Source: a virus
Reading direction: 5' to 3' (one strand)
IMG/VR virus record: IMGVR_UViG_3300046453_000179
Span: 3,125 to 67,124 of that record
Length of the DNA: 64,000 nucleotides
A model generated the notes under the pieces. The model was not told the DNA's origin and made no database searches. It saw nothing but the letters and a program-made list of their open reading frames with translations. Below are positions 62,416 to 64,000 of the stretch, piece after piece. The position numbers were made by a program, and so were the translations under genes. The first letter of the stretch is position 1. Each line of letters begins with the position of its first letter.

Positions 62416-62847
62416 TCACCGCCCGCGCACCTCGCGCACCACCTGCGCCGCGTCATGCACCAACTCGCCGATGTCCTTGCCGCGCCGGTGCTCGAGCCAC
62501 AGCACAATCGCACCGAGCAGCCACCACGCGGGCAACCCCGCCAGCACCAGCACCGGGCACGCCACCACCAGCACGCCCAGCGCGGCCGGCGCGCCGTACA
62601 GCACGGCCAGGATACGGGCGGACTCGAACAGCGTGGGCCACCAGCTGTGCAGCGCCACCAGCAGCAGCGGTCCCAGCAACGCCGCCGTGCAGACCGAGCA
62701 GGTCAACCGCACCAGCGCTTCGCGCCGGGTGCGCGGCCACATGAACAGAAAAGTCAGCGCGGTGGCGGCCGCGCCGGCGCCGACGGGCAGCGCCAGCAGC
62801 TGGACTAGCGCGGCAGCACTGAGGGTGGCAGGATCGGAAACAGGCAT
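62416..62847 (-). CDS. Phage holin-like membrane protein outside the prophage
   Basis: Three hydrophobic segments; FMWP..REA..R, AGLPAWW and GKDIGEL pattern recalled from betaproteobacterial phage lysis genes. Confidence 0.6.
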   Translation of the reverse strand: MPVSDPATLSAAALVQLLALPVGAGAAATALTFLFMWPRTRREALVRLTCSVCTAALLGPLLLVALHSWWPTLFESARILAVLYGAPAALGVLVVACPVLVLAGLPAWWLLGAIVLWLEHRRGKDIGELVHDAAQVVREVRGR

Positions 62848-62887
62848 GTGGGGCTCACTGGTGGGGGAAATAACGAGACAGGTTGAA

Positions 62888-62928
62888 TAATAGCACTGCT
62901 ATTACTAAAATCAATAGCAAAGCTCGTC
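62888..62928. promoter_or_regulatory. Operator palindrome and divergent promoters
   Basis: Perfect TAATAGCA-C-TGCTATTA (62888-62904) over a TGn-TATTAT -10 on the minus strand; degenerate second site CAATAGCAAAGCT at 62912. Confidence 0.7.
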
Positions 62929-62959
62929 AAATTTGTATCCGCATGCTAAACTTCCCTTC

Positions 62960-63712
62960 ATGAAACCCGACTCCAAACCTCTCGACACCTGGCAGCTGGA
63001 AGACGCCGCGCGCCTCAAGGCGCTGCTGGCCGCGCGCGCGCCAAAAATCTCGCAGGCGGATTTCGGCGCGCAGTTCGACATCGGCTCGCAAGGCATGGTG
63101 TGGCAGTACCTGGCGGGCCGGCGGCCACTGAATATCAAGGCTGCCACTGCATTTGCGCGCGGTCTGGCCGTGCCGGTGGATGCGTTCAGTCCCACCATCG
63201 CGGCGCAGATCGCCGAGGCGTCGCGCGCGGTGGCCGGCGTCGACCTGCCCGATGCGCGCGCAGTGACCGATGATGACGACCTGGCGCCGCCGTCGCTGGC
63301 GATCGAGCTGGTATCGCTGCATCTGCAGGCCGGCATCGACGGCATCGAGACCGTGCCGCTGTACGAGGCCAATGGCCAGCACCATGTGCCGCGCCAGTGG
63401 CTGGAAGAAAACGACCTGTCGCCGCAGGCGCTGTTGGCCATCAAGATCAAGGGCGACAGCATGCAGCCGCTGATGTACGAGGGAGATATCGCCGTCATCA
63501 ACACGGTGGACAAGGCGCGCAAGGCCGGTGGCGTCTTCGCCATGAACTACAACGGCCAGGCCGTCATCAAGCGGCTGCTGTACCAGCGCCGCGAATGGTT
63601 TCTGGCGTCGGACAATCCGGCGTTCCGTCCCGAGCCGTGCAAGGGCGCCGACTGCATCGTCATTGGCCGCATCGTCCGTTTTGACCCGCGCAATTTCCGC
63701 GACAGGCTCTGA
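62960..63712 (+). CDS. Second CI-like repressor (HTH plus S24) outside the prophage
   Basis: QAG, GDSM and KRL motifs intact; aligns by eye to 47134-47880; likely start MKPDSK. Confidence 0.9.
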   Translation: MKPDSKPLDTWQLEDAARLKALLAARAPKISQADFGAQFDIGSQGMVWQYLAGRRPLNIKAATAFARGLAVPVDAFSPTIAAQIAEASRAVAGVDLPDARAVTDDDDLAPPSLAIELVSLHLQAGIDGIETVPLYEANGQHHVPRQWLEENDLSPQALLAIKIKGDSMQPLMYEGDIAVINTVDKARKAGGVFAMNYNGQAVIKRLLYQRREWFLASDNPAFRPEPCKGADCIVIGRIVRFDPRNFRDRL

Positions 63713-63715
63713 ACC

Positions 63716-64000
63716 TTGGAAGTTACCGCCGCCGTCATCGTCCTGCGCCAGCTGACCGTCGCCGTCATCCTGGTGCCGATCGACGCCACCTATCCCGAAC
63801 CGGGCGCGCGCCTGATTGCCGCAGCACAGCGCGTGTTCCCCACGCTGCCCATCATGCTGGTGTCGCCGCGCGTGGGCGGTTTTTCGCGCAGCTATGCGCA
63901 TTTCGACGTGGCTGGCCTGATCGACCAGATCGACACCAGCCGCATCGCGTGGCGCCAGTATGCAATCGTCGCGCCGGCAGAGCCGCCCCTGCCGTTCTAG
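63716..64000 (+). CDS. Hypothetical protein, probably co-transcribed with the repressor
   Basis: TTG start 3 bp after the repressor stop; TAG at 63998-64000. Confidence 0.55.
   Translation: MEVTAAVIVLRQLTVAVILVPIDATYPEPGARLIAAAQRVFPTLPIMLVSPRVGGFSRSYAHFDVAGLIDQIDTSRIAWRQYAIVAPAEPPLPF

Follow-up and report, generated by a model that had tools for sequence, protein, structure and literature searches.

What is an intact CI-like repressor doing back to back with a lone holin-like gene on the chromosomal side of a tRNA gene that holds a prophage? A few model bacteria are known to have taken over phage switches (Alp, the pyocin regulators, and Rac among them), and whether these are junk, addiction, or adaptation is debated. 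The locus examined here ends the IMG/VR virus record IMGVR_UViG_3300046453_000179; our window is positions 3,125 to 67,124 of that record, i.e., the last 64 kb of its 67,124 bases, and the record ends at the stop codon of the last open reading frame (ORF). A sequence-only reading of this DNA had proposed a minimal domesticated switch made of a repressor, an operator, a promoter, and a holin, and the operators, promoter, gene order, and selection described below agree with that predicted architecture. The module, here called CI2-holin with a small third gene, orf94, is a remnant of a lambdoid immunity region, located on the chromosome and passed on vertically, in which the repressor CI2 would probably silence a lethal holin that is released once CI2 is inactivated. 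We are surer of its anatomy and evolutionary history, both well supported, than of its physiological trigger and benefit.

The divergent repressor-holin pair

The region runs from the prophage integrase to the end of the record; the module is given here before its neighbors.

62416 to 62847, minus strand: holin-family membrane ORF, 143 amino acids (aa), assigned by phrog_1024 and family context
62848 to 62886, minus strand: holin leader, about 35 nt, with a purine-rich stretch resembling a Shine-Dalgarno (SD) sequence
62887 to 62914, minus strand: predicted PR-equivalent holin promoter, with -35 TTGATT (62914 to 62909), 16-nt spacer, and TG-extended -10 TATTAT (62892 to 62887)
62888 to 62904, no strand: putative operator O1, a perfect 17-bp palindrome with core ATAGC-N3-GCTAT
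62914 to 62926, no strand: putative operator O2 (ATAGCAAAGCTCG), a conserved block 24 bp from O1
62944 to 62952, plus strand: PRM-equivalent -10 TGcTAAACT, read from the sequence and by homology to a prophage CI region (L088, below)
62960 to 63712, plus strand: CI2, lambda-CI-type repressor, 250 aa, with helix-turn-helix and S24 domains; the conserved start is 62960
63716 to 64000, plus strand: orf94, 94 aa, four bases behind CI2, without known family
62242 to 62326, minus strand: tRNA-Leu(taa), called by ARAGORN
62340 to 62369, minus strand: promoter-like site between holin stop and tRNA, a consensus match (ATGGCA-18-CATAAT with TG) that is probably the tRNA's own promoter
61060 to 62169, plus strand: tyrosine integrase (PF00589)

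The ORFs and the tRNA lie where the earlier reading had placed them, and both the holin and CI2 ORFs are intact, separated by a spacer of 112 bp. The window's ORF list and a Pfam scan likewise agree with its statement that no cro, replication, endolysin, or capsid gene stands between CI2 and the tRNA.

Judged by its domain matches, CI2 is a complete lambda-type repressor with cleavage site and catalytic dyad. It matches Peptidase_S24 (PF00717; E = 1.3e-17; 64 bits against a cutoff of 23.3) and the transcriptional repressor family phrog_4 (E = 5.7e-34), its residues 3 to 91 match structures of the lambda repressor N-terminal domain (1lmb, 1lli, and 1rio; E of about 1e-6), and lambda CI (3bdn) aligns with it from end to end (E = 1e-8). 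In this alignment, the Ala-Gly site and the Ser/Lys dyad, which had been described as intact, fall opposite their lambda counterparts: the CI2 cleavage site LQAG/I opposite VQAG, the serine of GDSMQP (GDSM) opposite GNSM, and the lysine of IKRL opposite FKKL. These lambda positions we take to be the cleavage site and catalytic residues of lambda CI. By analogy, CI2 would be expected to bind palindromic operators and to undergo RecA*-stimulated self-cleavage.

Over its full length, CI2 is 56% identical to the CI of the resident prophage (CI1, 47134 to 47880; E = 4e-100). A recount reproduced the 71 identities reported for the last 89 residues, without gaps, and the recognition-helix stretches of the two proteins differ, as had also been said. 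The C-terminal halves share 70% of their nucleotides at a synonymous divergence (dS) of 1.56, indicating that CI1 and CI2 are old paralogues kept alike by selection rather than products of recent conversion. A heterodimer of the two, raised in the earlier reading, is so far a matter of structure modeling: the modeled dimer of their C-terminal domains (CTDs) scored 0.61, compared to 0.07 for the best control, passing a mark that 51 of 78 solved complexes and 2 of 108 mismatched pairs reach. The three runs shared 100% of contacts, partner pLDDT was at least 86, and the modeled interface consisted of the conserved last 14 residues. However, passing the mark may come down to resemblance to CI and LexA dimers of known structure, and the model does not discriminate which family member binds the CI2 CTD.

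The spacer carries the putative control sites. The O1 palindrome, reported earlier as perfect, holds over all 17 bp, and its core occurs once in the window without mismatch (one 1-mismatch match, at 9253, is at chance level). A consensus scan, which returned 3 promoter-like sites compared to 0.3 expected, placed the -10 of a minus-strand, sigma-70-like divergent holin promoter inside this palindrome, in agreement with the original claim. O1 covers the -10 and the spacer of PR, and O2 adjoins the -35 of PR as well as a weak -35 of the CI2 promoter. Across the four module loci of related genomes described below, O1 is kept in 4/4 and the O2 block is invariant in 4/4; both stand out as footprints in an otherwise diverged spacer, and both are present in a fifth, variant locus (L085) whose promoter layout is alike (TTGACC-16-TATTAT). 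The SD-like stretch of the holin leader is also kept in all four, as read from the alignment. The PRM-equivalent -10 ends only 7 nt before the CI2 ATG, so the CI2 mRNA is probably leaderless. The scan offered an alternative CI2 promoter, TTGAAT-17-TAAAAT at 62883 to 62911; both placements, the one by homology and the other by scan, are inferences. The left half of a third operator varies in all four loci, and its -10 part, TGcTAAACT, survives. Each of the two whole genomes searched contains one exact copy of the operator, and the numbers of sites with up to 2 mismatches (6 + 6 and 8 + 7) are at the level of a reversed-pattern control (7 + 5 and 5 + 4). A wider CI2 regulon was rejected on these counts, and CI2 looks like a purely local regulator.

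The 143-aa protein behind PR appears from its context to be a lysis-cassette holin. It matches phrog_1024 (E = 9.4e-19), a family without annotated function, and has 99 homologues in Oxalobacteraceae, a few of which carry the automatic source name "phage holin family protein"; all those with a usable organism name come from Duganella, Pseudoduganella, Massilia, or relatives. We scanned one genome per species and obtained 79 loci with a relative of the membrane protein. In most of them, the family follows large tail genes and is itself followed by a GH19 enzyme (cluster 4) or an M15 peptidase (cluster 12) and then by small ORFs. GH19 and M15 enzymes are usual endolysin types, and the family's place between tail genes and endolysin, the holin position of lysis cassettes, accords with the earlier description of the gene as holin-like. 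(Clusters were made from the calls of a GC3-based ORF picker in the fetched loci; it sometimes took an antisense ORF over the holin, as in clusters 34 and 36, and holins were located by tblastn.) In several genomes the gene is present in three or four copies that often lie at the ends of contigs, which would be expected if they belong to prophages. Unlike the family members in lysis cassettes, the window's copy adjoins a tRNA, not an endolysin, yet it retains 21 of the 21 invariant columns of a 21-sequence family alignment. Hydropathy shows three hydrophobic blocks, the last of them 42 residues long, and a charged tail, while an AlphaFold model (pLDDT 80) places helices at 11 to 35, 41 to 69, 88 to 104, and 106 to 121, all four of membrane length, and a charged C-terminal helix at 126 to 142. 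The protein is therefore small, transmembrane (TM), and charged at its C terminus, as holins are; of the original wording, a membrane protein directly behind PR stood, and "three-TM" became an approximation for three to four helices. A tblastn search with the holin against 50,697 phage records gave no match.

Some records in the scan are curious in themselves. One Janthinobacterium contig (L056) carries two holin copies, 6541 to 6870 and 10730 to 11059, inverted and about 4 kb apart with a permease between them. A locus labeled Marmoricola sp. RAF53 (Actinomycetota; L009) has a holin identical to that of Pseudoduganella sp. RAF19 (L007) in the same gene order, and one labeled Candidatus Methylopumilus (L035) has a Janthinobacterium-type holin; these two labels are probably contamination or binning errors in public records.

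Position, inheritance, and selection

The module belongs to the chromosome. The 3' end of the tRNA (62242) is the junction between prophage and chromosome and faces the integrase, as is usual when a phage has inserted into a tRNA gene, and the module lies on the 5' side of the tRNA. A metagenome contig from a public sequencing run (X2) is about 97% identical to 62242 to 64000 (37 other letters and 10 gaps) and departs from the window exactly at 62242, indicating that a close relative has the module without this prophage. An att repeat of the resident prophage was also sought: no repeat of at least 14 bases from 62171 to 62340 occurs elsewhere in the contig.

In the 79-locus scan, orf94, CI2, and holin stood together in three loci, from a Duganella metagenome-assembled genome (L001), Duganella sp. 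Leaf126 (L003), and D. phyllosphaerae (L010). A DNA search of 119 Duganella genomes found the whole block colinear in four, namely these three (G094, G006, and G007, respectively) and G124, and one variant module besides (G093). CI2 orthologues are 87 to 89% identical in L001, L003, L010, and L084. The order multicopper oxidase-orf94-CI2-holin-tRNA-Leu(taa) is found in L003, L010, and L084; L001 has the same order up to the holin, and its contig ends before the tRNA position. Beyond orf94, the relatives have a convergent multicopper oxidase and then an outer-membrane efflux protein. Beyond the tRNA, L003 and L010 have a GGDEF/EAL gene and other host genes and no integrase like the window's. 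G124 (6.3 Mb) shares the flanks, and its tRNA is followed by an integrase unlike the window's and by a Mutator-family transposase. The synteny comparison that the sequence-only reading had called for thus puts the module beside tRNA-Leu(taa) in relatives, none of which has a similar prophage at the tRNA, and the X2 contig agrees; both place it outside the resident prophage, as that reading had held.

The tRNA gene itself lies within a few kilobases of the holin family in about 20 of the 79 loci, followed by different integrases (also in L084, 10351 to 11613), and looks like a shared integration hot spot in Oxalobacteraceae.

We estimated divergence pairwise by the Nei-Gojobori method on MAFFT codon alignments. 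The three module genes have dS values of 0.49 to 1.02, at the level of the flanking host genes (0.37 to 0.62), indicating that the module diverged along with its genomes and was vertically inherited. The ratio of nonsynonymous to synonymous divergence (dN/dS) was 0.10 to 0.23 for the holin, 0.09 to 0.15 for CI2, and 0.26 to 0.53 for orf94, compared to 0.08 to 0.21 for the flanking host genes. The holin and CI2 are therefore under purifying selection near flanking-gene values. Given the synteny, the intact copies, and the dS values, the module is neither strain-specific nor decaying nor part of a second prophage, outcomes that had been named in advance as fatal to the idea of a domesticated switch.

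The virus record runs on for 1.7 kb beyond the junction with the prophage (62327 to 64000 of the window) and stops at a gene boundary. Apparently, the provirus caller took the host's CI2, holin, and orf94 for viral genes, and provirus callers can draw host modules of this kind into virus records.

Phage origin and recurrence of the design

Two Duganella prophages preserve what the switch came from. Their CI regions (L087 and L088, from genomes G042 and G106) are 70% identical in DNA to 62886 to 63703 by blastn, and each spacer contains three operators of the consensus ATAGC-N3-GCTAT, 24 to 25 bp apart, with cro starting a few bases from the first. O1 of the window is the same as O1 of both prophages, and O2 has the form and spacing of their middle operator, with the right half GCTCG in common. 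The end of the third operator in L088 is a TG-extended -10, TGCTATACT, which lies 6 nt ahead of the CI ATG. The homology stops at 62886, one base past the -10 of PR, marking this position as the junction where the holin leader and holin replaced cro. From these comparisons, CI2, O1, O2, and orf94 are a piece of a lambdoid immunity region whose PR was fused to a late-gene holin. Moreover, since real Duganella prophages share its operator specificity, CI2 should also repress same-operator phages on entry (homoimmunity). This homoimmunity specificity, the origin by PR-holin fusion, and the repeated appearance of the design described below are three points that go beyond the earlier reading.

The third gene points the same way. 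orf94 has no Pfam, PHROG, or PADLOC match, and its 61 homologues are all unnamed proteins, those with an organism name being from Duganella or Janthinobacterium. One homologue lies in a D. lactea FT50W prophage (L083), downstream of CI, and the immunity region around it is colinear with the one in the resident prophage of the window. In that strain, orf94 and the holin are 46 kb apart, and we considered whether CI and holin are the two ends of one prophage; the idea was rejected, as orf94 lies there in a normal internal immunity region.

The same two-gene design has arisen elsewhere. Five Janthinobacterium genomes have a holin 16 to 19 kb from a prpE-like gene, and in the three stretches examined (L080, positions 1 to 19701; L081; and L082; genomes G002, G003, and G001), a cluster lies between the prpE-like gene and a xanthine/uracil permease. 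An S24 CI adjoins the prpE-like gene, and divergent from it run a weak Q-like gene, tail genes (including the tail protein phrog_290 and a 1,524-aa tape measure, phrog_339, E = 5e-71), a fiber gene, and the holin; in their Janthinobacterium counterparts from the first scan, the gene after the holin is a GH19 endolysin (cluster 4). These 16- to 19-kb stretches showed no head, terminase, or replication genes and therefore look like a tailocin-like or strongly reduced prophage cluster, a candidate non-contractile (F-type-like) Janthinobacterium tailocin. Among the papers listed by a literature search on tailocins of Janthinobacterium, Duganella, and Massilia, none dealt with these clusters. At 11 further Janthinobacterium loci, CI and holin alone occupy this site, with the endolysin absent. 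In the five short loci compared, homology to the long form covers CI and continues in the spacer until 34 bp short of the first cluster gene, gives way to about 75 unlike bases, and resumes 16 bp before the holin. All 11 of the 11 short-form holins are intact, with median dN/dS of 0.157 for the holin and 0.117 for CI, compared to 0.084 and 0.097 for the prpE-like and permease flanks. A third group, four Pseudoduganella-type loci, has a divergent CI-holin pair beside CAP-domain and GNAT genes and is under weaker constraint (median dN/dS 0.33 and 0.24). The medians for these two groups use only pairs with dS above 0.2 (34/55, 44/55, 50/55, 21/21, 6/6, and 6/6).

In the holin tree, the three module groups form separate clades (SH-aLRT 99, 100, and 97), each placed with the other holins of its genus. 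These clades and the differences in flanks and junctions jointly argue for three independent reductions. The tree is a quick IQ-TREE run with SH-aLRT support only; L080 to L082 and L086, which duplicate other rows, were not included, nor were tblastn matches covering fewer than about 90 query residues.

The variant Duganella module (G093; L085, 2008 to 3271) shows that the cargo can change. Its CI2 is 86% identical, and O1, O2, and the promoter layout are present beside the multicopper oxidase, with a CLC channel gene in place of orf94. The gene behind PR, however, encodes a 108-aa coiled-coil protein with a C-terminal TM helix that shares 36% identity (E = 4e-24) with the product of the gene opening the lysis cassette of the resident prophage, at the start of the window:

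351 to 725, minus strand: 124-aa coiled-coil protein with a C-terminal TM helix; no PHROG match
110 to 349, minus strand: 79-aa holin (phrog_1356, E = 1.8e-11)
1 to 264, minus strand: ORF open at the window start, in the endolysin position; no Pfam match for the fragment, and lysozyme-like with a hydrophobic N terminus when read by eye

A switch of this kind, then, can shrink to its barest logical form: a single autocleavable repressor, two operators, and a single holin. Purifying selection keeps this form intact across species, three genera arrived at it independently, and its killer gene can be exchanged while the operators stay unchanged.

Proposed working and its rivals

We propose that CI2 is made from the PRM-like promoter, probably on a leaderless mRNA, and that, through cooperative binding to O1 and O2, its dimers lie over the -10 and next to the -35 of PR and so keep the holin silent. 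Since the third operator is lost, CI2 would not limit its own synthesis. DNA damage would be the most likely trigger, with RecA* stimulating CI2 to cleave itself at Ala-Gly; sequestration of CI2, whether by the CTD of a related CI or by an antirepressor, may serve as well. Once CI2 is inactivated, the holin would be made and would permeabilize the inner membrane, leading to cell death or growth arrest rather than lysis, unless other lysins are present, since the module has no endolysin of its own. The repression and cleavage steps follow established knowledge of lambda CI and LexA.

Several observations weigh against this proposal. The membrane protein matches no curated holin family (its Pfam hits are below threshold, and phrog_1024 is of "unknown function"), and a BFVD fold search with the holin model returned 0 matches at E ≤ 0.001, the weak top matches including annotated holins. 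With neither endolysin nor spanin as partner, true lysis is not expected from the module alone. The branches leading to the module clades are long (0.27 to 0.40 changes per site), so the holin may have changed function after capture. A module present in 4 of 119 genomes of the genus, plus one variant, is not generally needed. The constraint on orf94 is weaker than that on the other two genes, and the proposal gives it no role. Finally, the modeled CI2-CI1 heterodimer, if it forms, is not lethal, because a lysogen with both repressors exists.

How else might the locus be understood? One alternative, which we think unlikely, is an anti-phage tripwire, in which antirepressors or CIs of incoming phages inactivate CI2 and early holin synthesis aborts the infection. 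The 80% identity of the CI2 C-terminal 89 residues to the resident phage CI, the modeled dimer, and the use of the neighboring tRNA as an integration site by several elements would all suit such a role. The resident prophage also encodes a KilA-N protein (44453 to 45262, minus strand; E = 7.8e-18), the earlier reading's antirepressor candidate, and KilA-N domains are common in antirepressor-type proteins. In P. aeruginosa, sequestration by the AlpR CTD triggers lysis (PMC7969949). However, neither CI2 nor orf94 matches PADLOC-DB 2.0, where the holin reaches only 14 bits (E = 0.0085), the dimer score may stem from likeness to solved CI/LexA dimers, and the window is itself a viable lysogen of such a phage, which at least is not excluded. 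The locus would instead be an addictive remnant without benefit, a selfish pair like RacR-YdaS/T, if the repressor were retained simply because the holin is lethal. Its layout, of the kind seen where an essential repressor is divergent from a toxic gene, and the threefold arrival at the same end state from larger clusters fit this view, but addiction protects the repressor and not the toxin, and a neutral holin should decay. Holins are intact in 5/5 Duganella and 11/11 Janthinobacterium, with dN/dS of 0.10 to 0.23 in the former and a median of 0.157 in the latter at dS of 0.5 to 0.9, and in G093, the cargo was exchanged for another membrane gene, not lost. We therefore regard pure addiction as improbable.

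Greater doubt attaches to a repurposed, non-lethal membrane protein, whether for release of vesicles, DNA, or protein after stress or for exclusion of phage DNA, with CI2 kept mainly for immunity. The long stem branch before each module clade and the missing endolysin partner are compatible with it, and homoimmunity alone could select CI2, given that its operator specificity is common to real prophages. Nevertheless, all family-invariant residues are kept, the two operators overlap the promoter as tightly as expected for a dangerous product, and the unrelated lysis-cassette membrane protein in G093 fits a lysis-type cargo better than it fits one new function; we consider this reading very improbable. 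As for a second prophage or satellite beginning with these three genes and continuing past 64000, the virus record does include them and ends exactly at the orf94 stop, and CI and holin are phage-type genes. That candidate was rejected and keeps next to no credence with us, since a convergent multicopper oxidase and host genes follow orf94 in 4/4 relatives with the block, no integrase, replication, or structural gene is present, and dS equals that of the host flanks. The relic with a CI2-silenced holin is the explanation that we think more likely than not. A bolder version of it, in which Oxalobacteraceae distilled prophages or tailocins at least three times, once with an exchange of the killer gene, into a repressor-holin sensor-executioner that selection maintains, whose CTD is bait for phage CIs and antirepressors or for RecA* and whose holin aborts infection or sacrifices damaged cells, strikes us as rather unlikely; if true, it would define a new, very small class of phage-derived defense or suicide module, recognizable from sequence alone.

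Compared with known circuits, the module would work like those of Alp, PrtR, and RacR while being simpler than any of them. The lambda immunity region (cI, OR1 to OR3, PR/PRM, and rexAB) is matched in the full-length CI alignment, the divergent promoters, the 24-bp operator spacing with the first operator over the PR -10, the probably leaderless repressor mRNA, and the extra gene behind the repressor, where lambda has rexAB. The module differs in having two operators (the third being degenerate) and no cro and in that PR reads into the holin. DicA-DicB is, besides Rac, a further repressor-toxin pair of an E. coli cryptic prophage. In RacR-YdaS/T of E. coli, a leftover phage immunity repressor divergent from toxic phage genes is likewise reported to be needed for silencing, racR being essential since RacR represses ydaS/ydaT (PMC5700377, PMC5700373). 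However, RacR-type pairs keep the phage's own early genes (cro/cII-like or a division inhibitor) behind PR within a larger decaying prophage, whereas here a late-gene holin is fused to PR in a three-gene block that is stable across species.

Alp of P. aeruginosa (alpR-alpA-alpBCDE) is similarly chromosomal and prophage-derived, with a LexA/CI-like autocleaving repressor, a putative holin (AlpB), and cell death as its outcome; AlpR autocleaves on DNA damage, and its CTD alone derepresses lysis via inactive heterodimers (PMC7969949). Alp works through an antiterminator, AlpA, and a four-gene lysis operon, whereas PR of the module drives one holin directly, with no intermediary, antiholin, or endolysin. 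The operators and the holin have no ORF between them, the holin is the only gene before the tRNA, and neither an AlpA-type antiterminator nor an alpBCDE-like operon is present; it is this architecture, not a comparison of protein sequences, that sets the two apart. PrtR is reported to be a CI-like S24 repressor over phage-derived late genes ending in holin and lysin (PMC8609362). This R/F pyocin layout is matched by the Janthinobacterium cluster, with its CI, weak Q-like gene, tape measure, tail, fiber, holin, and endolysin. The module, compared to PrtR clusters, is without tail genes, activator, or lysin; the tail tube, tape measure, and fiber expected of a tailocin are absent from it and present in L080 to L082. 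The module looks like the end point of a tailocin-type cluster after loss of all but switch and holin. Its hosts are harmless soil and leaf bacteria with cultured strains, so the use of a lone repressed holin is directly testable.

The resident prophage has a switch of its own. The spacer between its cro-like helix-turn-helix gene and CI1 (47051 to 47133) contains two copies of the palindrome AGTCGGACT, which are probably the CI1 operators. They are unlike the CI2 operators, suggesting that CI1 and CI2 are heteroimmune. A second antirepressor candidate of this prophage (49551 to 49889) gave no Pfam match, and the D. lactea prophage has a homologue of it at the corresponding position (L083, 10091 to 10435).

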